A program made the translations under genes and the position numbers. The notes beneath the pieces were generated by a model. That model saw only the letters and a list, made by a program, of their open reading frames with translations. It searched no databases and was not told the origin of the DNA. Source: Escherichia coli (GTDB lineage Bacteria > Pseudomonadota > Gammaproteobacteria > Enterobacterales > Enterobacteriaceae). Taken from it: a stretch of 64,000 bases of DNA. Location: NCBI RefSeq assembly GCF_044324875.1, contig NZ_CP172185.1; one strand, written 5' to 3'. This document shows, piece by piece, positions 2,608 through 52,836 of the stretch; the first letter of the stretch is position 1, and each line of letters opens with the position of its first letter.

Positions 2608-2825
2608 AAGTGAAATCCTTAAGTGCAAAATGGCATCTGAATCGATCGCAGTTTGGCATTCGAATCGATCATGATTTGGCATCCATCTCCGATCACAGTT
2701 TGGCATCACAATCGATCACGATTTGGCATGCTTCCGATCATTGATTGGCATCCTGCCAGTCACTCCGGGAATTAACTCTTTTCACCACAGTCTCCATTGC
2801 CGTGTTTAAACCAGTGGAGACGTCA

Positions 2826-4391
2826 ATGTCCAGAAAGAGAAAATCCAGGAGCACTATGGAAACCTGTTTTAAGATCCTTCAGCTCAAGTTCGACAAGAAG
2901 CTGACTAACCGTTGTATCGGACTGACGTTACACATCAGCGCCTCAACCGTTTTTGAGGTTCTTGCCCGCTTCAAAGCCTCTTCTCTGTCATGGCCATTAC
3001 CTGCTGATATATCCCATGACACGCTGGAGAAACTCATTTTTCCGCCCAAAGACACCTTTGCATCAGAGCTTGTAATGCCTGACATGTTGTACTTCGATAC
3101 GGAAATGAGAAAACCAGGTGTGACGCGGCAACTGTTGTGGATGGAATACAAGGCACAGGCGGGTAACAAAGCGATGGGATACTCGCACTTCTGCCGTTGC
3201 TACCGGGAGTGGAAAAAAACGCGACGTCTCTCCATGCGCCAGGAGCATCGTGCCGGCGAAAAGCTTTTTATCGACTTCTGTGGTCCTACGGTTCCTGTTA
3301 TTAATCCGGACACCGGTGAGATACGCCGCGTGGCAATCTTCGTGGCCGTAATGGGGGCGTCCAACTATACCTACGTTGAAGCGTGCGAAGGTCAGGACAT
3401 GATGTCATGGTTAAATGCCCACAGCCGTTGCCTGACCTTCCTGGGCGGCGTACCGAAGCTGCTCATCCCCGATAACCTCAGAAGCGCAGTGAAAAAGGCC
3501 GATCGATATGAGCCTGTCATCAACGACAGTTATCAGGCACTGGCTGAGCACTATGGCACGGTTATCATCCCGGCCCGACCACGCAAACCTAAAGATAAAC
3601 CAAAAGCAGAAAACGGCGTCCTCATCGTTGAACGATGGCTTCTTGCCCGCATCCGTAATGAAACCTTCCACACGCTCAGGGCGCTGAATGCGCGCCTTAG
3701 GGAGTTACTGACAGACATGAATAACCGGCCAATGAAGGGGTACGGCAATCAAACCCGTGCAGAACGCTTCCGCATACTGGATGCGCCAGCACTCTCTCCG
3801 CTGCCTCTGGCACCTTATGAATACACGGAATACAAAGCTGTGAAGGTTGGCCCTGACTACCACGTTGAATATGCCCGTCACTGGTACTCCGTTCCACACG
3901 AACTGGTCGGTCAGCGTCTGTCACTGAAGGCGGGGCAGTCGGTGGTACAGCTCTGGCACAAGGGGCAGTGTGTGGCGCAACATCCGCGCAGCACACATGA
4001 ATATAAACACACAACCAATCCGCTTCACATGCCAGAGCGCCACCGGCAGCACGGGACATGGACACCGGAACGCCTGATCGAGCAGGGAAAACGTACGGGC
4101 CCGTCCACAGGCCGGGTGGTTGAATCCATGCTGAAGGCAAAACCCCATCCGGAACTGGCTTATCGTGCAGTTCTGGGGCTGCTGGCACTTCAGAAAAAAT
4201 ACGGCCCGGAACGGCTGGAAAAGGCCTGTTACGTTGCCCTGCACTATAACGCCCCTGACAGACGCTTTATCGACAATCTGCTGCGTCACCATCGGGAGAA
4301 CCTGGAGCTTCCATTATCCCGCCAGGGCGAACAACATCCGGCATATGCTTCAGAGCATGAAAACCTGCGTGGTCCGGGCTACTACCACTGA
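2826..4391 (+). CDS. istA: IS21-family transposase IstA
   Basis: ATG at 2826 preceded by GGAG; translation has the IS21 IstA integrase-type core; N-terminal 27 residues of the track ORF read through the IS end and were trimmed. Confidence 0.85.
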   Translation: MSRKRKSRSTMETCFKILQLKFDKKLTNRCIGLTLHISASTVFEVLARFKASSLSWPLPADISHDTLEKLIFPPKDTFASELVMPDMLYFDTEMRKPGVTRQLLWMEYKAQAGNKAMGYSHFCRCYREWKKTRRLSMRQEHRAGEKLFIDFCGPTVPVINPDTGEIRRVAIFVAVMGASNYTYVEACEGQDMMSWLNAHSRCLTFLGGVPKLLIPDNLRSAVKKADRYEPVINDSYQALAEHYGTVIIPARPRKPKDKPKAENGVLIVERWLLARIRNETFHTLRALNARLRELLTDMNNRPMKGYGNQTRAERFRILDAPALSPLPLAPYEYTEYKAVKVGPDYHVEYARHWYSVPHELVGQRLSLKAGQSVVQLWHKGQCVAQHPRSTHEYKHTTNPLHMPERHRQHGTWTPERLIEQGKRTGPSTGRVVESMLKAKPHPELAYRAVLGLLALQKKYGPERLEKACYVALHYNAPDRRFIDNLLRHHRENLELPLSRQGEQHPAYASEHENLRGPGYYH

Positions 4392-4407
4392 CAGAAGGAA
4401 CAACAGT

Positions 4408-5163
4408 ATGAGTGATAACCTGTTAAACAAACTGACCCAACTGAAACTCCCGGCGATGGCCGGGAGCCTGATACGGCAGCGGGAAACGCCTCAGACCTAC
4501 GACGAACTGTCGTTCGAGGAAAGGCTGACGCTGCTGGTTGATGACGAGCTTCTGAGCAGGGAAAACAGCCGTGTGGCACGGTTGAGAAAAAATGCCGGCC
4601 TGAAATACCAGGCAACACCGGAAGGGCTGCGCTATCCGGCCTCAAGAGGTCTGCGGGCTGAACAGATGAGAGAACTGCTGAACGGCCACTACATAACCCA
4701 CAGGAAAAACCTGCTGATAACCGGTCCGACAGGATGTGGCAAGAGCTGGATAGCCAATGCGCTGGGCGAACAGGCATGTCGACAGAAACACAGCGTCCGG
4801 TACTGTAGAACCGGGCGATTACTGGAACAACTGGCTCAGGGACGTGTTGATGGCAGCTGGCTGAAATATCTGAAACAGTTGCAAAAAATACAGGTTCTAA
4901 TCCTGGACGATCTGGGGCTGGAACAGTTAAGTAACGCCCAGTGTAATGACCTTCTGGAGCTCATAGAGGATCGTTACGGACAAAGCAGCACGATAGTGGT
5001 AAGCCAGTTCCCGGTAGATAAATGGCATGGTCTGATGGAGAACCCAACAACAGCAGATGCCATCCTGGACAGACTGGTACATAACTCACACCGAGTGGTC
5101 CTTCAGGGAGAGTCACTGAGGAAAAATCCCCCGGTAGTGGAAAGCAGCGAAAAAACGCGTTAA
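4408..5163 (+). CDS. istB: IS21-family helper ATPase IstB
   Basis: MSDNLLNKLTQLKLPAMAG... with Walker A GPTGCGKS and Walker B ILDDLG; 16 bp after istA stop. Confidence 0.9.
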   Translation: MSDNLLNKLTQLKLPAMAGSLIRQRETPQTYDELSFEERLTLLVDDELLSRENSRVARLRKNAGLKYQATPEGLRYPASRGLRAEQMRELLNGHYITHRKNLLITGPTGCGKSWIANALGEQACRQKHSVRYCRTGRLLEQLAQGRVDGSWLKYLKQLQKIQVLILDDLGLEQLSNAQCNDLLELIEDRYGQSSTIVVSQFPVDKWHGLMENPTTADAILDRLVHNSHRVVLQGESLRKNPPVVESSEKTR

Positions 5164-5262
5164 AAAGCGGTAGAAAAAGTTAAGTTCCCGGTTGATCGAA
5201 TGGATGCGAATCGCTGATCGGACTTCGATGCCAATCCGTGATCGAATAGAGCGGAATACGCA

Positions 5263-23449: not shown

Positions 23450-23621
23450 GCTCAGTTCCTTATATTATTTCTATGGTAGCCAGTACCTGACCAGGTTCCA
23501 CTTCCTCCCCATTCTCCACCTTAAACTGGATAGACTGGCCCCCTGAATCTCCAGACAACCAGTATCACTTAAATAAGTGATAGTCTTAATACTAGTTTTT
23601 AGACTAGTCATTGGAGAACAG

Positions 23622-23987
23622 ATGATTGATGTCTTAGGGCCGGAGAAACGCAGACGGCGTACCACACAGGAAAAGATCGCAATTGTTCAGCAGAGCTTTG
23701 AACCGGGGATGACGGTCTCCCTCGTTGCCCGGCAACATGGTGTAGCAGCCAGCCAGTTATTTCTCTGGCGTAAGCAATACCAGGAAGGAAGTCTTACTGC
23801 TGTCGCCGCCGGAGAACAGGTTGTTCCTGCCTCTGAACTTGCTGCCGCCATGAAGCAGATTAAAGAACTCCAGCGCCTGCTCGGCAAGAAAACGATGGAA
23901 AATGAACTCCTCAAAGAAGCCGTTGAATATGGACGGGCAAAAAAGTGGATAGCGCACGCGCCCTTATTGCCCGGGGATGGGGAGTAA
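23622..23987 (+). CDS. insC: IS2 InsC (OrfA)
   Basis: [52 protein letters not shown]... Confidence 0.9.
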
Positions 23988-24850
23988 GCTTAGTCAGCCG
24001 TTGTCTCCGGGTGTCGCGTGCGCAGTTGCACGTCATTCTCAGACGAACCGATGACTGGATGGATGGCCGCCGCAGTCGTCACACTGATGATACGGATGTG
24101 CTTCTCCGTATACACCATGTTATCGGAGAGCTGCCAACGTATGGTTATCGTCGGGTATGGGCGCTGCTTCGCAGACAGGCAGAACTTGATGGTATGCCTG
24201 CGATCAATGCCAAACGTGTTTACCGGATCATGCGCCAGAATGCGCTGTTGCTTGAGCGAAAACCTGCTGTACCGCCATCGAAACGGGCACATACAGGCAG
24301 AGTGGCTGTGAAAGAAAGTAATCAGCGATGGTGCTCTGACGGGTTCGAGTTCCGCTGTGATAACGGAGAAAAACTGCGAGTCACGTTCGCGCTGGACTGC
24401 TGTGACCGTGAGGCACTGCACTGGGCGGTCACTACGGGCGGCTTCAACAGTGAAACAGTACAGGACGTCATGCTGGGAGCGGTGGAACGCCGCTTCGGCA
24501 ACGAGCTTCCGGCGTCTCCAGTAGAGTGGCTGACGGATAATGGTTCATGCTACCGGGCTAATGAAACACGGCAGTTTGCCCGGATGTTGGGGCTTGAACC
24601 GAAGAGCACGGCGGTGCGGAGTCCGGAGAGTAACGGCATAGCAGAGAGCTTCGTGAAAACGATAAAGCGTGACTACATCAGTGTCATGCCCAAACCAGAC
24701 GGGTTAACGGCAGCAAAGAACCTTGCAGAGGCGTTCGAGCATTATAACGAATGGCATCCGCATAGTGCACTGGGTTATCGCTCGCCACGGGAATATCTAC
24801 GGCAGCAAGCCAGTAATGGGTTAAGTGATAACAGGTGTCTGGAAATATAG
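23945..24850 (+). CDS. insD: IS2 InsD (OrfB) transposase
   Basis: 301-aa ORF overlapping insC in the -1 frame, DDE core. Confidence 0.9.
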
Positions 24851-25058
24851 GGGCAAATCCACTGGATATTAGTCCCGGTTGTTTCAGCATGAATTTCGTT
24901 AAACTGCTTCATTATTTCAATCAACCCAATGACGGTACTCTCCTGAACAGTGTCACCATTCTCCAGAAACGGGGCACTATCAGGTGCTGGTTTCCGATAA
25001 AATACACCAGGTAAAGGTGAAAGAATTTCTGTAACAGCCATAACATCCTCCATGTATA

Positions 25059-31296: not shown

Positions 31297-31569
31297 ACAT
31301 AAAGGAAAAGTATTATCGACCTCCTGTATATTAAAATTGAGTTAGCATAGTGACGAACAGATTTGGCAGGGCATATGTAGCCTGCTCCCCTCCGGGGTTT
31401 AAAGCTCTTTTTGTAAGCAACGGGCGCATGTGCTGACCCACTCATTTGACATCATGACGGTTTATCTGTACGTCACCATAACGCATTTTATAAGAATGTT
31501 TTTTGTCCCATAACAGGTGTCCACTGGTTAAAAAGGTGGGCACCTGTCGTTACCAGTACTGGCTTAATT

Positions 31570-31598
31570 GCTACATACGGCTGTCGGTTTACGCTTAC
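31570..31598. repeat. solo IS66-family terminal inverted repeat
   Basis: GCTACATACGGCTGTCGGTTTACGCTTAC differs at 2 of 29 positions from the right end of the IS66-family element at 41991-42019; no transposase body adjacent. Confidence 0.5.
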
Positions 31599-31621
31599 TT
31601 TCAACTTGTGGGTAAGGGGAT

Positions 31622-31682
31622 GGAGTGCGAATAAATGATCGAGCTTCGTGCGAATCACTGATCGAATACATCGGAATGCGCA
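31622..31682 (+). mobile_element. IS21-family right-end remnant
   Basis: ...GATCGAATACATCGGAATGCGCA matches the right end of the intact IS21-family element (…GATCGAATAGAGCGGAATACGCA) including GCGAAT subterminal repeats. Confidence 0.5.
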
Positions 31683-32687
31683 CTCTGAAGCAAACTTAAA
31701 ACATCTCTGCACCATTCCATGCACGCATAAAAGTCATTCCGGCATTTCATTTTACATAACATAAACAGAACAATAATAATTACAACAACATTCACACCAG
31801 CATTACAGAACACACTCTGTCTGTTGTTATCACCAGAAATATCAGGAGTATTTAAATGATTATTTCCTCACCTGCAGATTACAGGGACGCCGCAAAACAC
31901 AGACTGCCACGCTTTCTTTTTGATTACATAGACGGCGGGGCTGTTACTGAAAAAACCATGCATGAAAATATGACCTCTTTATCTTCGGTCAGCCTCCGGC
32001 AGCAGGTGCTTTGTGGCGCCGGAGCCCCCGAACTGAACACCACCATCCTTGATTCAGAATGGGCCATGCCTGTTGCTCTGGGCCCCGTCGGTGCCACTGG
32101 CATGTACGCCCGTCGTGGAGAGGTGCAGGCAGCCAGAGCGGCCTCAGCAATGAACATCCCTTATACTCTCTCAACCGTCTCCGTCTGCCCGATCGAAGAG
32201 GTCGCCGGACACGCTGACGGGCAACTGTGGTCCCAGTTATACGTCCTTCGGGATCGTGGTTATATGCAAAACGCACTTGAACGCGCCTGGACTGCAGGTA
32301 TGAAAACCCTGGTATTTACCGTCGACATGCCTGTGCCGGGCTCCCGGTACAGGGATAACCATTCAGGGATGTCAGGTCCCCACGCCACACTGCGTCAGTA
32401 TCTTCAGGCCGTTCTTCATCCCCGCTGGGCGCTGGATGTGGGAATTGCCGGTCGTCCTCTGTCATTTGGTAACATCGAAACGTACACCGGGCATAAAATG
32501 TCGATGGATGACTATATGGGCTTTATCAGCAAAAACTTTGATCCCTCTATTGCATGGAACGATCTCGAATGGATCCGTGATGGCTGGAAAGGTAAACTGA
32601 TAATAAAAGGGATCCTTGTTCCGGAAGATGCAAAAAATGCTGTACTGAACCGCCCCGGGTTTCCTGGAGAGTGTTTTATCTGTGAAC

Positions 32688-33578
32688 TCAGGCTGCCAGA
32701 TCATCGTTTCCGATGGAAGCATAATAAGATTTTTCTGCTTCTGCCGGTGGGATATGGCCCAGCCTTTCCAGCAATCGTCGATTGTTATACCAGTCCACCC
32801 ACGTGAGTGTGGCCAGCTCCACTTCTGTCCGGTTTTTCCAGCTCTTACGGTGTATTACCTCCGCTTTGTAAAGGCCATTGATGCTCTCCGCCATCGCGTT
32901 GTCATACGAGTCACCAGTACTTCCTGTTGATGCCAGTAATCCGGCTTCCTTAAGCCGCTGTGTGTAGGCCAGCGATACATACTGAGAACCTTTATCACTG
33001 TGATGGACTGTGCCGGACGGTCGACGGGCCCATAACGCCTGCTCCAGAGCATCCAGCACGAATGTCGTTTCCATAGACGATGAGACCCGCCACCCCACGA
33101 TGTATCCGGCAAACACATCAATGATGAACGCCACATAGACGACCCCCTCCCATGTGCTGACGTAAGTAAAATCAGCCACCCACAACTGGTCAGGACGTTC
33201 TGCCACAAACTGACGGTTTACGCGGTCGCCTGCGGCAACGGCTTTCCGGCTGACGGTAGTGCGGACCTTTTTACCCCGGAGAACACCGGCAAGTCCCATA
33301 ACCGCCATGAGGCGCGCCACTGTACATCTGGCTACCCTGATTCCTTCCCGTAACAACTGACGCCAGACTTTACGCACACCGTATACCTGATGATTCCCAT
33401 CGTATACGCGCAGTATCTCTTTCTTCAGCCAGTCATCGCGCTGCGCACGGGCACTGCGTTTATAAGGATGATGTCGCTGTTGCTGACAGTGGTAATACGT
33501 TGACGGGGCAATATGTAGTTCACTGCATACCGGTCCGACCCCGTACAGCTTACGCAGCTTATCCAGCAGTGGCATCAC
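32688..33578 (-). CDS. IS629 OrfB transposase
   Basis: 296-aa DDE ORF. Confidence 0.9.
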
Positions 33579-33901
33579 TTTTTCCAGAGGCGGTCGAACT
33601 CCGCCTTCGCAAAATAAGCGGAAGCCTGGCGAAGGATATCGTTACTGCGGCGCAGTTCACGATTTTCACGTTCCAGCTCTTTCAGACGCTGACGTTCAGC
33701 GGTGGTGAGCCCGCCATCACCGCCTCCGGTATCCCGCTCATGCTGGCGTACCCAGACACGCAGAGTCTCCGGTGTACAGCCAATCTTTGGGGCAATGGAA
33801 CAAATTGCCGCCCACTGTGAGTCATATTCGCCCTGACTTTCCAGAACCATACGAATCGCCCTCTGACGGACTTCGGGGGAAAAACGAGTATTTTTAGTCA
33901 T
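33575..33901 (-). CDS. IS629 OrfA
   Basis: [33 protein letters not shown]... Confidence 0.9.
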
Positions 33902-34412
33902 TCTGTTTACCTCTTTCTCAGGGAGTTTAGTCTCCAGGATTCCCGGGGCGGTTCAGTACGGCTTGGCGCGGATGGCATCATTGTCTCCAATCATGGCGGA
34001 CGTCAGCTTGATGGTGCCATCCCCACGGCCAGGGCATTACCGGCGATAGCAGATGCAGTGGGTGATGACATCACGGTACTGGCGGATTCAGGTATTCGTT
34101 CCGGTGTGGATGTGGTCCGGATGCTTGCTCTGGGGGCAAAAGGTGTGCTGCTGGGAAGAGCGTATATTTACGCACTTGCCGCTGCGGGAAAAAAAGGCGT
34201 TGAGCACCTGCTCAGACTTTATGCTGAAGATATGAAAGTCACCATGACGCTGATCGGCGCTTCTTCTCCCGCTGATATCAGCAGCAGAAATCTTGAATAT
34301 CTGGAAAAAGAATTCTCCCGACATTCATCATCCTGACCAAAGTAAACCAGGCACATATCCTCCATGCTCCCGGGACAACAGAGCGCAGTTCGGGCACTAC
34401 AGCCTTACTGGT

Positions 34413-34703
34413 TTACCAGTATGGTCTGCATTCAGAAGGGACCGACAACAACTCAGCCAGCTCCGCCACAAGGCGGTTGGTTTCCAGTAATTTCCGCAGA
34501 CTCACCGAAAAATAGCCTTGTGCCACATCGTGATTTTCACAGGCTTCCCTGCGCGTCAGCCCCAGAACAAAATAATCCCTCAGCGCCAGGATAACCTTTT
34601 TACTGTTAACGGGAGAAAGCGCTGCAAGTATTTCAAAATGTGCATCTGACATGCTTCCGGGCGTGTCATATATCCCGGCAACACGACTGTGATATATCCC
34701 CAC
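34413..34703 (-). CDS. PapB/FocB-family transcriptional regulator
   Basis: 96-aa ORF with GSMSDAHFEILAALSPVNSKKVILALRDYFVLGLTRREACE, resembling PapB-type fimbrial regulators. Confidence 0.6.
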   Translation of the reverse strand: MGIYHSRVAGIYDTPGSMSDAHFEILAALSPVNSKKVILALRDYFVLGLTRREACENHDVAQGYFSVSLRKLLETNRLVAELAELLSVPSECRPYW

Positions 34704-35584
34704 GGATACCCCCTGATTACCGCCTGCCCTTATTCCCCGGGAGACTGAGAACAGGCTGAGATATAAGTATATTTATATAATATTATATTTCGGATTATTC
34801 GCAGAATACTGAAAAAACCGGTCGGGTCAACCGCAGGAAAACAGAAAGAGCCTGTAATAACGCATAGAAACGATATTTAAAACCAGAACAACCATCAAAA
34901 ACAGAACATAAAGTCACAAAAACCGTCAAAAACGACCAGGTACTGCATTTTTAACACCTTTTTTAAATTTTGGTATCTTTACAAAAAACACCACCTGAAA
35001 ATCATTTATTTAATTAAATAAAGTAAATTGCTTAGCCTGATAAATATTGTTCTGCAACACTCCGGTTCAGGCAGAATGTATTTTCATGGCTTACCCATTC
35101 AGGCGTAAATGCGATATTCCGCACATGACAGAGACCACACAAAGAAAAACAGGCGCAGACAGCCGGATACAGGATAAATTAACACTTCACAATCCGGCAT
35201 TATTACGCTACAACATTCACGGGCAACTGCCCTTGTAACGAAAACTTCCTTAATTTGGGTATTTGTGTGCCGTACGTCTGTGGTGTACGGCTTTTTTTCA
35301 TTTTTTTATAATTTCTATAAATAAAGATATAATCAATACGTATATACCGTCGTATAAGATCCTTCTTCACCTTTCATTAAAAAGATCCGGAACAAAACAG
35401 ACGATGAGATTGTGGTACTACCAGATTTACACCCTTACTCCGGATAATTCACAAATCCTGAAATTACGACCTTCCTCCCGTTGCCGGACTGAAACAATAT
35501 GCAGACACTCTGACGGACATGTCAGCAATGCACTCGCTCTCTGCTGTACAGGTATTACACCATACTTCACCAGGAGGTCTGTTC

Positions 35585-37228
35585 ATGGATATCTGGTCAC
35601 AGGACTATGATCCCGTCGGAAATATCTGGCTGTCCAGCCTGACAGCATCGCTTCCCATTCTGTTTTTTTTCTTTGCCCTGATTAAGCTGAAGCTTAAAGG
35701 CCATGTTGCTGCCACATGGACTGTCATTATCGCGCTCATCGTGGCCCTTCTTTTTTATAAGATGCCTCTCACAGCCGCACTCGCTTCCGTGCTCTATGGT
35801 TTCTTCTATGGCCTGTGGCCCATTGCCTGGATAATTATTGCCGCAGTTTTTGTTTATAAAATTTCTGTAAAAACCGGACAGTTCGATATCATTCGCGCTT
35901 CAGTGCTGTCCGTTACGCCTGATCAGCGTATTCAGATGCTGATTGTGGGGTTTGCCTTTGGTGCCTTTCTCGAAGGGGCCGCCGGTTTTGGAGCACCTGT
36001 GGCCATAACAGCAGCACTGCTCGTGGTGCTTGGGTTCAGACCACTTTACGCGGCCGGGTTGTGTCTGATCGTCAATACAGCTCCCGTGGCCTTTGGTGCG
36101 ATGGGGATCCCCATTCTCGTCGCAGGCCAGGTTACCGGGCTGGACAGCTTTGAAATCGGTCAGATGGTTGGTCGTCAGTTACCCTTCCTGACCATTATTG
36201 TGTTGTTCTGGATCATGGCAATTATGGATGGCCTGCGTGGCATTAAGGAAACCTGGCCCGCCGTTCTGGTTGCCGGAGGTTCCTTCGCCATAGCCCAGTT
36301 TCTCAGTTCCAACTTTCTGGGCCCGGAGCTCCCGGACATCATATCATCACTGGTGTCGCTGGTTTGTCTGACGCTTTTCCTGAAACGCTGGCAGCCTGTA
36401 CATATTTTTCGCTTTGACAACACCCCGTACCAGAATACGGACTCATCACCACTGAGCCGTTCACAGGTGATACGGGCATGGTCGCCATTTCTGTTTCTGA
36501 CTGCCACGGTGACACTCTGGAGTCTTCCTCCCTTTAAAACACTGTTCGCACCGGGCGGTACACTGCATGACCTGGTGATTACTGTTCCTGTGCCGTATCT
36601 TGATAAACTCATTGCACGTATGCCTCCGGTAGTCAGCGAAGCCACTGCTTATGCCGCGGTGTTTAAGTTTGACTGGTTCTCTGCCACCGGTACCGCCATC
36701 CTGTTTGCAGCATTGCTCTCTGTGATCTGGCTGAAGATGAAACCGTCAGATGCTGTCAGCACCTTTGGCAGTACACTGAAAGAACTTGCCCTGCCCGTCT
36801 ATTCCATCGGCATGGTGCTGGCTTTCGCCTTTATCTCTAATTATTCGGGGCTTTCATCCACACTTGCCCTGGCTCTGGCACAGACAGGCAGCGCCTTTAC
36901 GTTCTTCTCACCGTTTCTGGGCTGGCTGGGCGTATTTCTGACGGGATCAGATACCTCATCCAATGCATTATTTGCATCACTCCAGGCAACGGCAGCTCAT
37001 CAGATCGGGGTCTCCGATATTCTGATGGTTGCCGCCAACACCACAGGGGGAGTAACCGGCAAAATGATTTCTCCACAGTCCATTGCCATCGCCTGCGCAG
37101 CAACCGGACTTGTTGGCAAAGAATCAGAACTCTTTCGTTTTACTGTTAAACACAGCCTGATCTTCACCTGTATTGTGGGAGTCATCACCTCTCTCCAGGC
37201 ATGGGTATTCACCTGGATGATCCCATGA
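35585..37228 (+). CDS. lldP: L-lactate permease (LctP family)
   Basis: Near-collinear with E. coli LldP from [19 protein letters not shown]; start set to ATG 35585. Confidence 0.85.
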
Positions 37229-37403
37229 AATATTTGTTGTGCCGGATCTTTTCCGGCATGATGATGTGTGTTACAGCCTCTGGCTTATAACACTCTGCAG
37301 TAGTGCTGGCTGACGTGACTGCCGGATATTCTGGTTTTCTTAAGTCACGGATATACTGACGACAGGGTTTCACATTCAATATTCAACTGACAGGTATGTT
37401 TAT

Positions 37404-38696
37404 ATGGCACACCGCTACCTGACACGACAGGATCACAGGACCTTATCTCTGGCTGCGCTCGGAGGCGCACTTGAATTCTATGACTTCATCATTTTTGTTT
37501 TTTTCGCCGCCGTCATTGCTGAGCTCTTTTTCCCGCCGGATATACCGGAATGGCTCCGTCAGCTCCAGGCATTTGGTATATTTGCTGCCGGGTACCTGGC
37601 ACGACCTCTCGGCGGAATAATTCTGGCCCATTTTGGCGATATACTTGGGCGAAAGAAAATGTTCACCCTGAGTATTTTGCTTATGGCAGTACCGACACTT
37701 GTTATCGGTATTTTGCCAACCTACAGCTCTGTGGGTACCCTGGCTCCTGTGCTGCTTCTTCTGATGCGTCTGCTTCAGGGCGCAGCGATTGGCGGTGAAG
37801 TGCCCGGTGCCTGGGTTTTTGTTGCTGAGCATGTACCGGAGCGCCGAACCGGTATTGCATGCGGAACACTGACAGCAGGTTTAACCGCCGGGATCCTGCT
37901 TGGTTCAGTGGTTGCCACACTTGTCAATTCAGTATTGTCTCAGGATATTGTTTACGATTACGGCTGGCGATTCCCCTTCCTTCTTGGTGGTGTTTTTGGC
38001 CTGGCAGCAATGTACCTGCGCCGCTGGCTGGAGGAAACTCCGGTATTTCTGGAAATGAAAGCCAGAAAAAAACTGGCTCAGGAATTACCGGTAAAAGCTG
38101 TCGTTTTAAGACATAAAAAAGCTGTTGTGATTTCCATGCTGTTGACATGGCTGATATCCGCAGGGATTATTGTGGTGATACTGATGGCACCGGTCTGGTT
38201 ACAGAAACAGTATGACTTTTCGCCGACAGTCACCTTACAGGCTAACAGCATTGCAACTATTATGCTGAGTCTGGGATGCCTGCTGGCCGGTATGGCCATT
38301 GATTCTTTTGGTGCCGGAAAAACCTTTATATCAGGCAGTATTCTGCTTGGATGTTCAGGATGGCTGTTCTATCACACTGTCGGTGAGTATCCTGAAATGT
38401 TGTTCTGGCTGTATGGGCTGGCGGGATTCAGTGTGGGCATTGTCGGGGCCGTCCCTTATGTTCTCGTGCGTATTTTCCCCGCAGAGGTCAGGTTTACCGG
38501 CATTTCATTCTCTTACAATGTCGCTTATGCAGTGGTGGGGGGACTGACTCCTGTTGTGGTCACGATGTTAACGGAAATCTCCCCGATGGCTCCAGCATGG
38601 TATGTTATGCTGTTATCACTTGTGGGATCAGGACTGGGAATATGGTTCTGCAGGGATCCCCGTCTTTTTATCTGTCACGCAGACAAAGACAAATAA
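37404..38696 (+). CDS. MFS transporter, metabolite:H+ symporter type
   Basis: 430-aa 12-TM ORF with MFS motifs (GDILGRKK, LLMRLLQGAAIGGE). Confidence 0.8.
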   Translation: MAHRYLTRQDHRTLSLAALGGALEFYDFIIFVFFAAVIAELFFPPDIPEWLRQLQAFGIFAAGYLARPLGGIILAHFGDILGRKKMFTLSILLMAVPTLVIGILPTYSSVGTLAPVLLLLMRLLQGAAIGGEVPGAWVFVAEHVPERRTGIACGTLTAGLTAGILLGSVVATLVNSVLSQDIVYDYGWRFPFLLGGVFGLAAMYLRRWLEETPVFLEMKARKKLAQELPVKAVVLRHKKAVVISMLLTWLISAGIIVVILMAPVWLQKQYDFSPTVTLQANSIATIMLSLGCLLAGMAIDSFGAGKTFISGSILLGCSGWLFYHTVGEYPEMLFWLYGLAGFSVGIVGAVPYVLVRIFPAEVRFTGISFSYNVAYAVVGGLTPVVVTMLTEISPMAPAWYVMLLSLVGSGLGIWFCRDPRLFICHADKDK

Positions 38697-38738
38697 TGTT
38701 TCACCGTTATATAACGGTATCATTCAGTTTTTAAAAAT

Positions 38739-38760
38739 GGCGACAGGTTAACCTGTCGCC
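38739..38760. terminator. candidate terminator hairpin after the MFS gene
   Basis: GGCGACAGG-TTAA-CCTGTCGCC perfect 9-bp stem, 43 bp after the stop; no clean T-run, so efficiency uncertain. Confidence 0.4.
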
Positions 38761-39328
38761 ATCCGGTCAGATGCTCACCAGACCGCGCCCCCCATCAGTC
38801 TCCATATCCTCCCCCTTGCCCTGCCGGATGATAGCGCCACGCGACATCACCAGGTAGTGGTCCGCCGTCATGTTCCGGTGAAATCGTCCTGACACGTTTC
38901 CGGGCTCGTTATCAGCGGTTTTTGCGAATGATCGCCGCCCTGCGATGGTTGATTTATTTTATTGCGCCCCGGCGTCTGCCTTGCCAGGTACCGGAGGCGG
39001 GCTCTGAAGTACTGAGTAGGGTGAGCGCGTCAGGCCACGAAGTACTGACACGGGAGTTTGTGGCAGGCAGTGAAGTCCTGACCAGGGTAAGGGAGGGGCT
39101 GACGTGCATGCCCTGACTGTCAGCCAGGGCGCGTGGTGACTGACTTTCTCAATAACCCGCTGTCAGGCGCTCAACGCCCGACAGCAGGCCATGGCCCGGT
39201 GTGCAAAGACCTGACGGCAGGCCTTGTGTCACCCGGATAAGGTAAATCCCTCAAGAGGCAGCAACTCAGCCAGTCGGTCCTCAGGCCACTCCGGCAGGCG
39301 CGTCAGTACGTCCGTCAGCCAGGCATGT

Positions 39329-39432
39329 TGCAAAATCGCATCGTGTTCGATCGCCGATTCGCATCGTACTCGATCGCTGATTCGCATTGTCCGATCATTG
39401 ATTCGCATCCTGCAGTCACTCCTGGAATTAAC
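39329..39432 (+). mobile_element. IS21-family left-end remnant
   Basis: TGCAAAATCGCAT… with four ATTCGCAT subterminal repeats and …CCTGCAGTCACTCCTGGAATTAAC, paralleling the left end of the intact IS21-family element; sequence diverges after 39432. Confidence 0.5.
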
Positions 39433-39517
39433 TTTTCTGCATAGTCTCTACTGCTGAATTTTCTTCTCAGTAGAGGTCTTGATGGCTGTAAGCGTCAACG
39501 GAGCACCGTATTGACGC

Positions 39518-41131
39518 TTATTTATTGGTGAGTACTACGTTCCATGGCAGGAGTTCGTCAACTCGGTTGGAAGGCCATTCCGGCAGTACGCTCAGGATAT
39601 GGCGCAGATACGCTTCCGGATCGATACCGTTCAGACGGCAGGTGCCGATCAGCCCGTACAACAGTGCTCCACGCTCGCTGCCGTGATCGCTGCCAAAGAA
39701 CATAAAGTTTTTCTTTCCGAGACAGACTGCACGAAGCGCTCTTTCCGCAGCATTATTATCCGCCTCCGCCAGACCGTCATCACTGTAATAACAGAGGGCA
39801 TCCCACTGATTCAGTACATAGCTGAACGCTTCGCCCAGTCTGGATTTTTTCGACAGCGTACCATTCTTCTCCACCATCCATTCATGCAGCGACGTCAGTA
39901 ACACTTTGCTTCGCTGCTGCCTGACGGCAAGACGCTCTGACTCCGGTAATCCCCGTATTTCATCCTCGATGGCGTACAGTTCACTGATTCGCTTCAGGGC
40001 TTCTTCTGCCGTCGCACTTTTGCTGCTGATGTATACATCGTGGATTTTTCGCCGGGCATGGGCCCAGCACGCAACTTCTGTCAGTGCACCACCTTCACGT
40101 TCTGCACTGAACAACCTGTCGTAACCTGTGAACGCATCCGCCTGCAGGATACCCCGGAAGGGGCGGAGGTGTTGCTCCGGGTGTTTCCCCTGCCGGTTCG
40201 GCGAGTACGCGAACCAGACCGCTGGAGGAGATGACGAACCCACATTGCGATCATCCCGGACATACGTCCAGATACGCCCTGTTTTCGCCTTTTTCTGACC
40301 CGGTGCCAGTACCTTTACCGGTGTGTCATCAGTGTGAACCTTGCGGGTGTTCATTACATAACGGTACAGGGCATCATTCACCGGTGTCATTAACTGGCAG
40401 CACGCGTCAACCCAGTTGGAGAGTAAGGCCCGGCTCAGTTCGACACCCTGGCGGGCAAAGATTTCACTCTGACGATACAGTGGCAGGTGTTCGCAGTATT
40501 TTCCCGTTAACACGCGGGCAAGTAACCCCGGGCCCGCGATACCACGCTCTATCGGACGGGATGGTGCCGGTGCTTCAACGATACAGTCACATTTTGTACA
40601 GGCTTTTTTTACCCGTTCTGTGCGGATCACTTTCAGGGCGCTGCTCACCAGTTCCAGTTGTTCTGCACTGACTTCCCCCAGATAATCCAGCTCACCGCCA
40701 CACTCCGGGCAACAGCTTTCTTCAGGCTCCAGGCGGTTTATTTCGCGGGGCAGATGCTCCGGTAACGGACGACGATGGCGTGACTGTCGCAACTGGCGGG
40801 GAACCTGCCGGTCATCCTCTCGCCCACTGTAACGATCGCTGTCCTGTTCGCGTTGCTTCAGCAGGGCCTCAGCCTGTTCAACTTCACGACGCAGTTTTTC
40901 AGAACGGGTACCGAACAGCATCCGGCGCAGTTTTTCTATCTGAGCCCGCAGATGTTCTATTTCCCGTTCATCTTCTTCGATCTTTTCTTCGGCACGTGCC
41001 AGCGCAGAACGCAGGAAGGCCTCCGTCTCTTCAACCAGACTCAGTTGTTGGTCTTTCTGACGGAGGGCTTCAGCCTGCTCAGAGAGCAACCTTTCCAGCT
41101 CTGCGATGCGAATGAGGTATTTCTGACTCAT
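39518..41131 (-). CDS. IS66-family transposase TnpC
   Basis: 537-aa ORF, CCPECGG motif. Confidence 0.9.
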   Translation of the reverse strand: MSQKYLIRIAELERLLSEQAEALRQKDQQLSLVEETEAFLRSALARAEEKIEEDEREIEHLRAQIEKLRRMLFGTRSEKLRREVEQAEALLKQREQDSDRYSGREDDRQVPRQLRQSRHRRPLPEHLPREINRLEPEESCCPECGGELDYLGEVSAEQLELVSSALKVIRTERVKKACTKCDCIVEAPAPSRPIERGIAGPGLLARVLTGKYCEHLPLYRQSEIFARQGVELSRALLSNWVDACCQLMTPVNDALYRYVMNTRKVHTDDTPVKVLAPGQKKAKTGRIWTYVRDDRNVGSSSPPAVWFAYSPNRQGKHPEQHLRPFRGILQADAFTGYDRLFSAEREGGALTEVACWAHARRKIHDVYISSKSATAEEALKRISELYAIEDEIRGLPESERLAVRQQRSKVLLTSLHEWMVEKNGTLSKKSRLGEAFSYVLNQWDALCYYSDDGLAEADNNAAERALRAVCLGKKNFMFFGSDHGSERGALLYGLIGTCRLNGIDPEAYLRHILSVLPEWPSNRVDELLPWNVVLTNK

Positions 41132-41161
41132 GACCGTTTTTATAATGCGGTCAGGCGTTTT

Positions 41162-41512
41162 TTACAACATTGTCAGTGAGTTAAGGCGGGATGTTTTTGG
41201 CTGACGCCAGTCCAGCTTATCGAGGAGCATTACCAGTTGCGAACGGGTAATGGATACCTTGCCGTCACGTACCGCAGGCCAGATAAACTGGCCTTCCTCC
41301 AGGCGTTTGGTGAACAGGCACAGACCATCAGCATCAGCCCAAAGAATTTTAACGGTGTCACCCCGTCGGCCACGGAAGATAAACAGGTGGCCGGAGAAGG
41401 GATTATCATTCAGCACATGTTGTACCTGTTCTCCCAGTCCGTTGAAGGATTTACGCATATCGGTAACGCCGGCAACGAGCCAGATACGGGTACCTGATGG
41501 GAGTGAAATCAT
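41162..41512 (-). CDS. IS66-family TnpB (Orf2)
   Basis: 116-aa ORF MISLPSGTRIWLVAGVTDMRKSFNGL... Confidence 0.9.
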   Translation of the reverse strand: MISLPSGTRIWLVAGVTDMRKSFNGLGEQVQHVLNDNPFSGHLFIFRGRRGDTVKILWADADGLCLFTKRLEEGQFIWPAVRDGKVSITRSQLVMLLDKLDWRQPKTSRLNSLTML

Positions 41513-41934
41513 CTTCCCCTCCCGCTCAGTTCGCGGATCAACACCGTGAGCAGCTCTGGCGATGGATTTTCCAGCGTCATGTTACCGTGATGGAACTCCA
41601 CCTTGCAGGAACTGGCACTGACTCTGGTCTGAGTGGAAGTGGATAAAGACGGCGCAATGGCCGCCACAGGTTCTTTCTGCTCATCCGGCGTTATTTCTAC
41701 AGGTAATAATTCAACGCCAGTGTCAGAAGAGGTCGTTACCGGAAGACGCCGCGAAACACGCCCTTCGTTCTGCCAGAGCCTGAGCCATTTGAAAATAACA
41801 TTATCATTGACGCCATTTTCACGTGCAATCTGTGCAACACAAGCTCCAGGTTGTGATGCCAGTTCAACCATACGAAGTTTGAATTCATTCGAATAGTTTT
41901 TACGAGGTTCTTTTCGCCAGTCCTGTAATTCCAT
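41509..41934 (-). CDS. IS66-family TnpA (Orf1)
   Basis: 141-aa ORF, 4-bp overlap with tnpB. Confidence 0.85.
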   Translation of the reverse strand: MELQDWRKEPRKNYSNEFKLRMVELASQPGACVAQIARENGVNDNVIFKWLRLWQNEGRVSRRLPVTTSSDTGVELLPVEITPDEQKEPVAAIAPSLSTSTQTRVSASSCKVEFHHGNMTLENPSPELLTVLIRELSGRGR

Positions 41935-42019
41935 ACTTAGATGTCCGTCTATATCAGATGGGCGTCTAAGTTACCAATTTTCGTCTGATGGCTACATACG
42001 GCGGTCAGTTTACGCTTAC

Positions 42020-42290: not shown

Positions 42291-42332
42291 TGAACCGCCC
42301 CGGGTTTCCTGGAGAGTGTTTTATCTGTGAAC

Positions 42333-43223
42333 TCAGGCTGCCAGATCATCGTTTCCGATGGAAGCATAATAAGCTTTTTCTGCTTCTGCCGGTGGGATAT
42401 GGCCCAGCCTTTCCAGCAATCGTCGATTGTTATACCAGTCCACCCACGTGAGTGTGGCCAGCTCCACTTCTGTCCGGTTTTTCCAGCTCTTACGGTGTAT
42501 TACCTCCGCTTTGTAAAGGCCATTGATGCTCTCCGCCATCGCGTTGTCATACGAGTCACCAGTACTTCCTGTTGATGCCAGTAATCCGGCTTCCTTAAGC
42601 CGCTGTGTGTAGGCCAGCGATACATACTGAGAACCTTTATCACTGTGATGGACTGTGCCGGACGGTCGACGGGCCCATAACGCCTGCTCCAGAGCATCCA
42701 GCACGAATGTCGTTTCCATAGACGATGAGACCCGCCACCCCACGATGTATCCGGCAAACACATCAATGATGAACGCCACATAGACGACCCCCTGCCATGT
42801 GCTGACGTAAGTAAAATCAGCCACCCACAACTGGTCAGGACGTTCTGCCACAAACTGACGGTTTACGCGGTCGCCTGCGGCAACGGCTTTCCGGCTGACG
42901 GTAGTGCGGACCTTTTTACCCCGGAGAACACCGGCAAGTCCCATAACCGCCATGAGGCGCGCCACTGTACATCTGGCTACCCTGATTCCTTCCCGTAACA
43001 ACTGACGCCAGACTTTACGCACACCGTATACCTGATGATTCCCATCGTATACGCGCAGTATCTCTTTCTTCAGCCAGTCATCGCGCTGCGCACGGGCACT
43101 GCGTTTATCCGGATGATGTCGCTGTTGCTGACAGTGGTAATACGTTGACGGGGCAATATGTAGTTCACTGCATACCGGTCCGACCCCGTACAGCTTACGC
43201 AGCTTATCCAGCAGTGGCATCAC
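42333..43223 (-). CDS. IS629 OrfB transposase
   Basis: 296-aa DDE ORF. Confidence 0.9.
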
Positions 43224-43546
43224 TTTTTCCAGAGGCGGTCGAACTCCGCCTTCGCAAAATAAGCGGAAGCCTGGCGAAGGATATCGTTACTGCGGCGCAG
43301 TTCACGATTTTCACGTTCCAGCTCTTTCAGACGCTGACGTTCAGCGGTGGTGAGCCCGCCATCACCGCCTCCGGTATCCCGCTCATGCTGGCGTACCCAG
43401 ACACGCAGAGTCTCCGGTGTACAGCCAATCTTTGGGGCAATGGAACAAATTGCCGCCCACTGTGAGTCATATTCGCCCTGACTTTCCAGAACCATACGAA
43501 TCGCCCTCTGACGGACTTCGGGGGAAAAACGAGTATTTTTAGTCAT
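43220..43546 (-). CDS. IS629 OrfA
   Basis: 108-aa ORF. Confidence 0.9.
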
Positions 43547-43600
43547 TCTGTTTACCTCTTTCTCAGGGAGTTTAGTCTCCAGGATTCCCGGGGCGGTTCA

Positions 43601-44608
43601 GTACTGCCGAATTAGCCCATTTGTGTTCTCATTTGTTCCCCGCTGCCAAGGACTCTGAGGATCGCAGAAGTAAACTTTAACGCCGGTGCTGACAGTAAAT
43701 TCTAGATGTCTGGCCAGTTCCATTCCTCTGTCCCATGTCAGTGATTTTCTGAGTTCTGACGGTAAACTCAGGAATTTGTCGGTAAGAGCCTGATTTACTG
43801 AGACAGAATCTTTGCCCCTGAGTCTAAGGATGATCGTATAACGTGATTTTCGGTCTACAAGTGTGGCTATATGAGAGTTTTTTGTACCTGAGACTAAATC
43901 GCCCTCCCAATGCCCCAGAGAGCGTCTGTTATCGATATTTCGGGAACGTTCGTGAATTGGTGTTCCGTTCACTATGTTAATCGTACCTCTTTCGCCTTTG
44001 CGGGTATGACGCCTGCCATGGCGAAGGCTATGCGACCGTCGCAGATGCTGTATATTCAGGTGGTGTAGCGCTTCACGGCTACGAAAGTACAGCGTTTTAT
44101 AAATTGTCTCAGGTGATATTCGCAGCGTTTTTTGACGTGGTTTTGTTCGCCTTAACCATCCTGATATTTGCTCTGGAGACCATTTCATCTCCAGCTTTTC
44201 CAGAACAAGCTTTCGCAATGGTAAATTTTGATCCAGTAAGCACGGTTTTGGCCTTTTCGCCATTCTGTTGGCTCGGTTATTAGCATCAACAGCTTTGTAA
44301 TAGCGTCTGCCCCGATTACGCTGAACTTCACGTGAGATCGTCGAAGGACTGCGATTCAGCGCAGTAGCTATCGCACGAATGCTCATTTTGGCTGACAAAC
44401 CAGCTCGTATCTCCTCGCGCTCAGACAGTGTCAGGTGAGCTACAGCCCGCTTACGCTCATGGGGTTTTATGCCGCCAGTATCCCTTAACATAGTGAAGAT
44501 CGTTCCGGGTTTTGAACCCAGGATATTCGCTATTTCACTGAAGCCTGTTCCGTTCTTCCATAGTTCAAAAACAGAGGCTTTTTCCTCTGCTGTAAATGTT
44601 CGTCTCAT
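43601..44608 (-). pseudogene. IS30 transposase, C-terminally truncated
   Basis: [38 protein letters not shown]…; last residues replaced by read-through into IS629. Confidence 0.85.
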
Positions 44609-49582: not shown

Positions 49583-49646
49583 ATTCGCTTCCTATTGCTC
49601 AACCTGAACCGCCCCGGGTTTCCTGGAGAGTGTTTTATCTGTGAAC

Positions 49647-50537
49647 TCAGGCTGCCAGATCATCGTTTCCGATGGAAGCATAATAAGCTTTTTCTGCTTC
49701 TGCCGGTGGGATATGGCCCAGCCTTTCCAGCAATCGTCGATTGTTATACCAGTCCACCCACGTGAGTGTGGCCAGCTCCACTTCTGTCCGGTTTTTCCAG
49801 CTCTTACGGTGTATTACCTCCGCTTTGTAAAGGCCATTGATGCTCTCCGCCATCGCGTTGTCATACGAGTCACCAGTACTTCCTGTTGATGCCAGTAATC
49901 CGGCTTCCTTAAGCCGCTGTGTGTAGGCCAGCGATACATACTGAGAACCTTTATCACTGTGATGGACTGTGCCGGACGGTCGACGGGCCCATAACGCCTG
50001 CTCCAGAGCATCCAGCACGAATGTCGTTTCCATAGACGATGAGACCCGCCACCCCACGATGTATCCGGCAAACACATCAATGATGAACGCCACATAGACG
50101 ACCCCCTGCCATGTGCTGACGTAAGTAAAATCAGCCACCCACAACTGGTCAGGACGTTCTGCCACAAACTGACGGTTTACGCGGTCGCCTGCGGCAACGG
50201 CTTTCCGGCTGACGGTAGTGCGGACCTTTTTACCCCGGAGAACACCGGCAAGTCCCATAACCGCCATGAGGCGCGCCACTGTACATCTGGCTACCCTGAT
50301 TCCTTCCCGTAACAACTGACGCCAGACTTTACGCACACCGTATACCTGATGATTCCCATCGTATACGCGCAGTATCTCTTTCTTCAGCCAGTCATCGCGC
50401 TGCGCACGGGCACTGCGTTTATCCGGATGATGTCGCTGTTGCTGACAGTGGTAATACGTTGACGGGGCAATATGTAGTTCACTGCATACCGGTCCGACCC
50501 CGTACAGCTTACGCAGCTTATCCAGCAGTGGCATCAC
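49647..50537 (-). CDS. IS629 OrfB transposase
   Basis: 296-aa DDE ORF. Confidence 0.9.
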
Positions 50538-50860
50538 TTTTTCCAGAGGCGGTCGAACTCCGCCTTCGCAAAATAAGCGGAAGCCTGGCGAAGGATATCG
50601 TTACTGCGGCGCAGTTCACGATTTTCACGTTCCAGCTCTTTCAGACGCTGACGTTCAGCGGTGGTGAGCCCGCCATCACCGCCTCCGGTATCCCGCTCAT
50701 GCTGGCGTACCCAGACACGCAGAGTCTCCGGTGTACAGCCAATCTTTGGGGCAATGGAACAAATTGCCGCCCACTGTGAGTCATATTCGCCCTGACTTTC
50801 CAGAACCATACGAATCGCCCTCTGACGGACTTCGGGGGAAAAACGAGTATTTTTAGTCAT
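50534..50860 (-). CDS. IS629 OrfA
   Basis: 108-aa ORF. Confidence 0.9.
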
Positions 50861-50914
50861 TCTGTTTACCTCTTTCTCAGGGAGTTTAGTCTCCAGGATT
50901 CCCGGGGCGGTTCA

Positions 50915-51526: not shown

Positions 51527-51580
51527 TGAACCGCCCCGGGAATCCTGGAGACTAAACTCCCTGAGAAAGAGGTAAACAGA

Positions 51581-51907
51581 ATGACTAAAAATACTCGTTT
51601 TTCCCCCGAAGTCCGTCAGAGGGCGATTCGTATGGTTCTGGAAAGTCAGGGCGAATATGACTCACAGTGGGCGGCAATTTGTTCCATTGCCCCAAAGATT
51701 GGCTGTACACCGGAGACTCTGCGTGTCTGGGTACGCCAGCATGAGCGGGATACCGGAGGCGGTGATGGCGGGCTCACCACCGCTGAACGTCAGCGTCTGA
51801 AAGAGCTGGAACGTGAAAATCGTGAACTGCGCCGCAGTAACGATATCCTTCGCCAGGCTTCCGCTTATTTTGCGAAGGCGGAGTTCGACCGCCTCTGGAA
51901 AAAGTGA
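51581..51907 (+). CDS. IS629 OrfA
   Basis: 108-aa ORF. Confidence 0.9.
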
Positions 51908-52794: not shown

Positions 52795-52836
52795 GTTCAC
52801 AGATAAAACACTCTCCAGGAAACCCGGGGCGGTTCA

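Follow-up and report, generated by a model that had tools for sequence, protein, structure and literature searches.

Stumps of two IS21-family copies beside a lactate gene block in an Escherichia coli tRNA-Ser island: probable separate insertions, not a supported composite transposon

A block of lld and MFS genes in a genomic island of Escherichia coli is most probably (we put the chance at about three in four) flanked by what is left of two separate IS21-family copies, each reduced by nested IS insertion and subsequent IS-mediated deletion or recombination. The window analyzed here is a stretch of 64,000 nt from contig NZ_CP172185.1 (assembly GCF_044324875.1), in which the order on the plus strand is an IS21-family right end, then lldD, a papB-like gene, lldP and an MFS gene, and then an IS21-family left end (Table 1). 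An initial annotation had read this order as the relic of a composite transposon, a reading that is not supported: judging from strain comparison, the two stumps would be separate acquisitions and not the vehicle that delivered the cargo.

Table 1. Coordinates of the IS remnants, reference element and cargo genes in the window
Feature	Position	Strand	Basis or remark
ISSso4, intact, IS21 family	2624..5262	+	IstA NF033546, IstB NF038214; reference for ends
IS66-family element, terminal 50 bp	31549..31598	-	Tip at 31598 (...GTTTACGCTTAC); lost body to the left
Putative IS4/Tn5-like IS, terminal 24 nt	31599..31622	-	Reverse complement CATCCCCTTACCCACAAGTTGAAA; tip at 31622
IS21-family right TIR remnant	31623..31682	+	Two 23-bp-spaced repeats; tip ends in CA at 31682
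lldD upstream region	31683..31855	+	Holds the sole promoter-like site, 31751-31780
lldD, FMN-dependent L-lactate dehydrogenase	31856..34336	+	NCBIfam NF033901 on the uninterrupted L001 allele
Orphan PapB/FocB-family regulator gene, 96 aa	34413..34703	-	RefSeq annotation of identical DNA; Pfam PF03333
lldP, L-lactate permease	35585..37228	+	NF007740; 86% identical to K-12 LldP
MFS metabolite/H+ symporter	37404..38696	+	TIGR00883 match below cut-off; annotation
ABC-transporter ATPase gene, 3' fragment	38767..38865	-	RefSeq pseudogene annotation on identical DNA
Older IS66-family element, right-end fragment	38867..39328	-	About 78% identical to ISEc49-like copies; insertion target of the right IS21-type copy
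IS21-family left TIR, leader and first two istA codons	39329..39487	+	Alignment to ISSso4 left end
ISEc23, IS66 family (tnpA, tnpB, tnpC)	39488..42019	-	Annotation; NF033517; truncates the right IS21-type copy

Both stumps are recognizable by comparison with the intact ISSso4 of the window, whose IstA is 98% identical to an ISSso4-family IstA. On the left of the cargo, positions 31620-31684 give a same-strand alignment with the ISSso4 right end (5200-5264; 80% identity over 66 bp, E = 1.8e-9 within the window), and the tips read ...GGAATGCGCA at 31682 and ...GGAATACGCA at 5262 of the intact element. On the right, the sequence from 39329 onward aligns, again on the same strand, to the left end of ISSso4 (2624-2800; E = 9e-17), with a tip reading TGCAAAAT... 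that starts with TGCAAAATCGCATC as against TGCAAAATGGCATC in the intact element. These same-strand alignments confirm the plus orientation and the right-then-left order of the two ends. Both ends are real, with small corrections to their limits: the right end, originally placed at 31622-31682, has its inner limit at 31623, and the left end, originally placed at 39329-39432, extends a further 55 bp to 39487.

The stumps share the end architecture of ISSso4, namely TG...CA tips, GATC-N4-(A/T)TT(C/G)GCA repeats every 21-24 bp, and a leader hairpin before istA, but their DNA is 77-80% identical to it, and they thus belong to a different IS. The TG at 39329-39330 and the CA at 31681-31682 are in register with the ISSso4 termini, which the CTTAAG duplication bounds. 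The surviving lengths in the window are 60 bp and 159 bp, as against a complete ISSso4, and left-end repeats number three or four in the stump versus six in ISSso4. In the left-hand remnant, which finishes in ...GCGCA, there are two repeats of 18 nt (31625-31642 and 31648-31665) at 23-bp spacing; the right-hand remnant has three, spaced by 23 and 21 bp, and its leader hairpin stands just before the istA start codon, an ATG at 39482. The TIRs of IS21 consist of direct repeats at 23-bp spacing with a terminal CA, and IstA needs two repeats in vitro (PMC10122671). Both stumps are like these TIRs in their multiple 23-bp-spaced repeats, terminal CA, and at least two complete repeats each; unlike them, they are without a cognate transposase.

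That the stumps are not ordinary intergenic sequence is evident from the motif GATCNNNNATTCGCA, which occurs eight times in the 64 kb when up to one mismatch is allowed, always within one of four IS21-type ends, as against a mean of 1.25 in shuffled sequence (0 of 100 shuffles reached eight). No further IS21-type fragments were found in the window. The use of ATTCGCAT in place of TTTGGCAT, which had been taken to set the stumps apart from the intact element, proved not to be a clean discriminator, since the right end of the intact element itself contains GATTCGCAT (at 5205-5219).

The right-hand side offers a series of strains in which the loss of an IS body, proposed by the initial annotation, can be traced from locus L013 through L014 to the window. 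In L013, the IRL is followed by a 500-aa IstA that begins at the equivalent of 39482, and ISEc23 is absent. In L014, ISEc23 is inserted in istA with an 8-bp duplication (TGATGGCT), and istA resumes beyond it. In the window, the remnant is cut at 39487/39488 by the terminal repeat of ISEc23, the flanks of ISEc23 (tgatggct and cattgagg) show no duplication, and the DNA beyond it is unrelated to the right flank of L014. The IstA of the right copy in L013, L014 and L026 has 500 aa with the Pfam domains rve and Mu-transpos_C_2, and is 74% identical to the IstA of ISSso4, with which it is colinear over 485 residues; the remnants thus come, as had been suggested, from an IS related to yet distinct from the intact one. 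The istB gene and right end of the right copy are missing from every copy found, these three best-preserved ones included. For both IS21-type stumps, the partner ends that would delimit a target duplication, of 4-8 bp in the IS21 family, are lost in all genomes examined; that of the window's ISSso4, for comparison, is 6 bp (CTTAAG).

No intact ATTCGCAT-type IS turned up in complete E. coli genomes, in plasmids or in a protein search with its IstA, and the nearest IstA to that of the right copy, among 5.8 billion proteins, is 77% identical. Several candidates, namely L028 (a Logan contig, 77%), L043 (Enterobacter ludwigii, 76%), L044, L045 and L029, were set aside when reading their ends revealed different ISs in each case; L029, an EPEC-type plasmid contig considered as an instance of the same junction between an IS66 fragment and an IS21-type element, is in fact ISSso4-type, and its junction is unrelated. 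Each carrier genome has a single occurrence of the stump sequences. The IS of the right copy is assignable to the ISSso4 subgroup of the IS21 family, and in the large sequence collections searched it is present only as a fossil.

The right copy lies in the fragment of an older IS66-family element in which tnpC is represented by its last 29-32 codons (39229-39327, by tblastn to amino acids 501-529 of ISEc23 TnpC). In two loci, L015 and L037 (AR_0085), there is no right copy: homology with the window stops exactly at 39328, the sequence beyond is GGCTCCAG..., and the TnpC homology crosses the site, extending over amino acids 430-529 versus 501-529 in the window (100 versus 29 residues). The genes from rpn onward lie downstream with or without the right IS copy, at 99% identity. 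Because the tnpC fragment is contiguous in the IS-free alleles, the right boundary is an insertion site in pre-existing DNA and not a junction between transposon and target. The empty-site and IS-bearing alleles are separated by 11 SNPs clustered at 39010-39264, which mark a tract of recombination within the IS66 remnant, such that either state could have been imported and the polarity of empty and occupied alleles is unproven.

On the left, the debris is a triple nest of an IS66 end, a 24-nt Tn5-like tip and the 60-bp IS21 end. The IS66 end matches the distal end of ISEc23 (41970-42019) in the same orientation, with 80% identity over 50 bp (E = 2.7e-7), and carries a terminal repeat of the GTAAGCG... 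type, its reverse complement beginning with GTAAGCGTAAACC. The solo IS66-type IR reported earlier at 31570-31598 is genuine and forms the best-conserved part of this end; no second IS66 IR was found upstream of it. A mini-IS66 (MITE) at 31413-31598 was considered as the deleted element and rejected, the repeat near 31413 scoring no better than shuffles. The 24 nt between the IS66 end and the IS21 remnant, outside of which they lie, are truncated on their inner side by the IS66 end. We infer that they are the tip of a separate IS4/Tn5-like IS from two other loci, L041 and L046, in which the same 23 nt precede an IS4/Tn5-family transposase ORF (NF049926) by about 68 nt; they presumably resemble the Tn5 outside end. 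Neither an intact element nor a second IR was found for this tip, of which the window holds 24 nt only. The left stump is identical in all carriers (11 of 11 complete genomes and all contigs read), whether or not they have the right copy, and no genome examined retains the body of the left-hand copy.

The lld/MFS block resides in a mosaic genomic island at an E. coli tRNA-Ser gene, in which partial IS66, IS21, IS3, IS4 and IS2 elements are stacked between metabolic modules up to a bounding integrase. From the tRNA-Ser gene to the integrase the island is colinear with that of TUM1886, where the ISSso4 copy at 2624-5262 is not present. Nested IS 'graveyards' occur in tRNA-linked E. coli genomic islands, and the window locus matches them with no essential difference. 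The cargo has this one context in all 11 complete genomes and in every contig read (24 blocks with the longest contigs, of about 3000 with cargo proteins, a sample that rarer contexts may have escaped), and had no match among the 72,556 plasmids searched; the same cargo with complete flanking IS, which the initial annotation proposed to look for, was not found in this material. The leftward junction, between an aromatic-amino-acid-transporter gene and lldD, is invariant among complete genomes, and the only variation on the left consists of additional IS insertions at 31527-31531 in some strains. With regard to the origin of the cargo, a scan of species representatives gave Klebsiella pneumoniae LldD, at 81%, as the sole relative, and no source was found.

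The cargo amounts to an accessory lactate module of lldD, lldP and the MFS gene, without lldR. In the window, lldD is interrupted by an IS629-like IS3-family element (32646-33956, minus strand; NF033516) with a 3-bp duplication, TAC. A hybrid promoter for lldD derived from the IS21 right end found no support, the sole promoter-like site being internal to the upstream DNA of the cargo.

Composite transposons may have directly repeated flanking IS copies, and the 'inside-out' use of their inner ends is known from Tn10 and Tn5. The locus resembles them in that an inner right and an inner left end face a block of accessory genes, and a genuine IS21-type composite might have moved lld/MFS into the island and then lost its outer parts to IS66-type and Tn5-like insertions. 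A right end, the cargo and then a left end, with both ends in one orientation and inner flanks that do not match, would fit the inner ends of direct copies, and the two stumps, both about 78-80% identical to the ISSso4 ends, could come from the same IS, for which no reference with both ends was found. Nevertheless, we hold such a transfer to be quite unlikely: the right copy sits in a tnpC fragment that is continuous with the downstream genes in alleles without the IS, which identifies it as having inserted later into uninterrupted DNA; carriers that have no right copy retain both the cargo and the left stump; and neither outer ends, nor an outer target duplication, nor a second genomic context was found in the window, carrier genomes, contigs or plasmids. 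Moreover, the CA tips face the cargo, and the pair is therefore an 'inside-out' unit that cannot mobilize the lld genes and, as preserved, could act only on the remainder of the chromosome.

Composite transposons also arise by independent insertions of one IS, and the insertion of the right copy was independent, so that one IS, inserting twice on either side of resident genes, might have created a unit with mobile potential that never moved before it decayed. This seems to us very unlikely, in that the truncated left stump is common to all carriers, those with an empty right site included, from which it follows by parsimony that the left copy was no longer functional when the right one inserted; the best right copies, too, already lack istB and the right end. 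A single IS21-type insertion whose ends were parted by tandem duplication or circular permutation, or when a circle was excised and re-integrated, would produce the observed order in one orientation. However, the sequence after the right end (ctctga) differs from that before the left end (gcatgt), with no shared target duplication, in agreement with the earlier judgment that the remnants stem from two insertions and not from a single one, and the empty-site sequence is unrelated to what follows the tip of the left stump. The flank comparison rules out a permuted single insertion unless one flank was replaced later, and we regard it as extremely improbable.

Under the preferred reading of two separate copies, the right side began with the insertion of an ISSso4-subgroup IS21-type element at a site that lies downstream of the MFS gene, in the tnpC remnant of the older IS66-family element. 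This copy then lost istB and its right end, ISEc23 entered istA at codon 2 with an 8-bp duplication, and, in the lineage of the window, everything beyond ISEc23 was replaced, probably by recombination between ISEc23 copies or by an adjacent deletion, leaving 159 bp. These steps are shown by strain comparison; those on the left derive from the anatomy of 134 bp only. There, an IS21-type copy may formerly have ended 173 bp upstream of lldD; a Tn5-like IS would have inserted 60 bp from its tip, and an IS66-type IS 24 bp from the Tn5-like tip, after which all three bodies would have been deleted. The IS21-type stumps that remain are inert relics.

The junction between the Tn5-like tip and the IS21 end recurs elsewhere. 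In 15 of 15 occurrences examined the tip adjoins an IS21-type repeat, and the IS21-type ends beside it differ between the window, a plasmid of Escherichia fergusonii and the genome of E. coli 55989; of these three ends, about 79% alike, one is of the right-end and two are of the left-end type. In each of the three cases the tip lies exactly 3 nt beyond the GCA core of a predicted IstA-binding repeat. One explanation, which we consider unlikely, is that the Tn5-like IS inserts site-specifically into IS21-type terminal repeats; alternatively, there may have been one old junction whose IS21 side was later converted. If the targeting were true, it would represent an IS homing to the transposase-binding sites of another family.

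Overall, the locus represents ordinary layered IS wreckage, with little significance past annotation, and the strain series provides a stepwise record of the decay of one IS copy. On present evidence, the lactate module of lldD, lldP and the MFS gene is not IS21-borne, and it should be neither annotated nor modelled as self-mobile.

Both IS21-type ends that enclose the cargo (the lldD, papB-like, lldP and MFS genes) are genuine. When aligned with the intact ISSso4 element at 2624-5262, the remnant left of the cargo matched its right end (31620-31684; 80% over 66 bp, E=1.8e-9) and the sequence from 39329 onward matched its left end (E=9e-17; first bases TGCAAAATCGCATC), each on the same strand, which bears out the initial annotation in placing a right end left of the cargo and a left end right of it, both in plus orientation. 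Its coordinates were near-exact, except that the right remnant runs past 39432 to 39487, taking in a leader hairpin and the istA ATG at 39482, and stops where the terminal repeat GTAAGCG of the IS66-family element ISEc23 begins. Direct repeats with a spacing of 21-23-bp are present in both remnants, matching the architecture described for IS21 ends, in which repeats lie 23 bp apart, the CA is reactive and IstA needs at least two repeats (PMC10122671). The motif GATCNNNNATTCGCA (at most 1 mismatch) has 8 sites in the window, all of them in the four IS21-type ends (the two remnants and ISSso4), and 0 of 100 shuffles reached 8. The last 23 nt of the left remnant read GATCGAATACATCGGAATGCGCA, as against GATCGAATAGAGCGGAATACGCA in ISSso4; however, ATTCGCAT repeats cannot serve to mark the remnants off from the intact element, as had been proposed, because the ISSso4 right end itself holds one copy. 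That the remnants come from a related but distinct IS is nonetheless upheld, the IstA of the right copy being 74% identical to that of ISSso4.

A possible explanation for this arrangement, and the one originally advanced, is that two direct IS copies flanked the cargo as a composite transposon. In its favor, the ends stand in the expected order and share an orientation, and the inner flanks (ctctga after 31682, gcatgt before 39329) are unrelated, as fits two copies; a single permuted IS21-type insertion is excluded by these same flanks. But to read the locus as a composite-transposon relic goes too far: the right copy is polymorphic and lies within continuous DNA, the cut-down left stump is common to carriers with and without that copy, and no outer ends occur in the window or elsewhere in the carrier genomes, each of which has a single place matching the ends. 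The cargo is confined to one context, with 11 carriers among 5426 complete E. coli genomes and 0 among plasmids, and the sole relative found among species representatives was a Klebsiella LldD (81%). The locus is instead ordinary nested IS debris containing two independently acquired IS21-type copies, each of which would have been destroyed by later IS66-type insertions and deletions, and the left one also by a Tn5-like insertion. The CA tips of both stumps point at the cargo, such that the stumps as they stand enclose everything but the cargo; no cognate transposase for them is present, and any residual activity would be inside-out.

Features of the locus and resident IS elements (window coordinates; remarks on extra segments and empty sites are relative to E. 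coli strain TUM1886)
Feature	Position	Strand	Remark
IS21-family element (ISSso4)	2624-5262	+	extra
IS2-like element	23530-24861		ends of TGGATTTGCCCCTATATTTCCAGACA type; site without IS in TUM1886
IS66-type end	31549-31598		80% identical over 50 bp to ISEc23 far end
Putative Tn5-like IS tip	31599-31622		reverse complement CATCCCCTTACCCACAAGTTGAAA
IS21-type right end	31623-31682	+	
IS629-like element within lldD	32646-33956		extra
IS66-family tnpC 3' end	39229-39327	-	directly left of 39329
IS21-type left end	39329-39487	+	
ISEc23	39488-42019	-	
Additional segment	~43.6-59 kb		extra

Roughly 3000 assemblies carry the cargo, and carriers in differing states were found by exact-protein look-ups of MFS, LldD and IstA, which returned E. 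coli contigs. In two of these (L015 and L037, the latter from AR_0085), the cargo and left stump are retained, and window homology ends at 39328 with the IS21-type sequence absent. The tnpC 3' end at this point belongs to what is left of an ISEc49-like element, a right-end fragment of ~460 bp, and TnpC homology spans residues 430-529 in the two empty-site loci as opposed to 501-529 in the window. In the empty-site loci, the genes from rpn onward then follow, 663 bp further on, as in the occupied locus L014 (99% identity). The empty-site and occupied alleles differ by 11 SNPs, all in 39010-39264, with 0 in the preceding 5 kb, so that a recombination tract inside the IS66 remnant separates the two states; the polarity of insertion is not proven. 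Whichever the polarity, the right junction is an IS-in-IS insertion site and not a boundary between transposon and target. Beyond the MFS gene come, at 38737-38865, a 26-bp perfect palindrome and an ABC-ATPase 3' fragment, and next the IS66-family remnant. At a second locus, TUM9803 has a 98.6% identical ABC-fragment/IS66 block beside a manganese/iron ABC transporter gene, and there tnpC runs on beyond the IS21 insertion point.

Among carriers of the right copy, homology in L013 and L026 (LH50-c) extends to 39487 and then passes straight into a 500-aa IstA, without ISEc23. L014 has ISEc23 in the same place, with an 8-bp duplication, TGATGGCT, on either side and istA resuming beyond. In the window, the right flank of ISEc23 is cattgagg plus a GTPase-gene fragment, so the remainder of the IS21-type copy was replaced once ISEc23 had inserted. 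Neither istB nor a right end survives in even the best-preserved right copies, where homology to relatives gives way ~1.48 kb into the element to 154 bp of other DNA, with the rpn gene next. As this 154-bp segment (L014 16097-16250, between the cut istA and rpn) has no match in IS21 relatives or in the empty-site allele, the loss was not a simple deletion. The duplicated TGATGGCT (39480-39487) also occurs within the far end of ISEc23, at 41986-41993, probably by coincidence.

The left stump packs three nested IS ends into 134 bp, and the solo IS66-type repeat noted earlier at 31570-31598 proved real and longer than first described. Two other loci, one on an E. fergusonii plasmid (L041) and one beside shiF-iuc in E. 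coli 55989 (L046), also contain CATCCCCTTACCCACAAGTTGAAA, each time ~68 nt upstream of a transposase ORF of the IS4/Tn5 family (NF049926). The segment 31599-31622 resembles the Tn5 outside end and is interpreted as the terminus of a Tn5-like IS whose insertion hit the IS21-type end; it was in turn cut at 31598 by the IS66-type end. This junction is identical in 11/11 complete genomes having it and in all contigs read, none of which holds more of the left IS21-type body; the left side varies only by additional IS insertions at 31527-31531.

The window belongs to a chromosomal island of E. coli and is colinear with TUM1886 (NZ_CP128970.1); the island is a mosaic of metabolic modules and IS elements that in TUM1886 runs from a tRNA-Ser gene beside ghrA to a tyrosine integrase beside dgcT. 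ISSso4 codes for IstA (NF033546; 98% identical to 'ISSso4 family' IstA) and IstB (NF038214), has TG...CA termini and is flanked on both sides by the 6-bp duplication CTTAAG. Since its target, in an antirestriction-gene region, is empty in TUM1886, this copy looks recent and is probably active. Within the cargo, LldD and LldP are 63% and 86% identical to the K-12 proteins, there is no lldR, and gene order is lldD-papB-lldP-MFS as against lldP-lldR-lldD in the core operon. The stretch between lldD and lldP (34413-35584) holds an orphan regulator gene of the PapB/FocB family and then ~880 bp without a called gene, and the only promoter-like site upstream of lldD falls within the cargo's own leader. 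An IS629-like element of the IS3 family (ends TGAACCGCCCCGGG..., 3-bp duplication TAC) interrupts lldD, a gene that is whole in TUM1886 and in the majority of other carriers, so the island lactate dehydrogenase is inactivated in this strain. Near-identical IS629-like copies occupy 42291-43601, 49605-50914 and 51527-52837, and a partial match starts at 58959.

Among 5.8 billion proteins, none comes closer to the right-copy IstA than 77% identity, and the relatives fetched (L028, L043, L029, L044) are different ISs sharing a similar end design; the right-copy IS is therefore an unsampled member of the ISSso4 subgroup for which this fossil is the sole record. The 24-nt Tn5-like tip was joined to an IS21-type repeat, each time 3 nt beyond the GCA core, in 15/15 occurrences examined, which include window 31599-31622, L041 4001-4061, L046 2947-3030 and the loci L048-L059. 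Three different IS21-type ends are involved, 1 of right-end and 2 of left-end type, and between L041 and 55989 the Tn5-like side is conserved at 97% versus ~79% for the IS21 side. This fixed offset could reflect either a Tn5-like IS that targets IS21-type sites or a single old junction whose IS21 side was converted later. Mildly new, then, are an IS21-family member for which very large collections yield no intact copy and, in the 15 occurrences examined, a Tn5-like tip found only at a fixed offset on IS21-type repeats.
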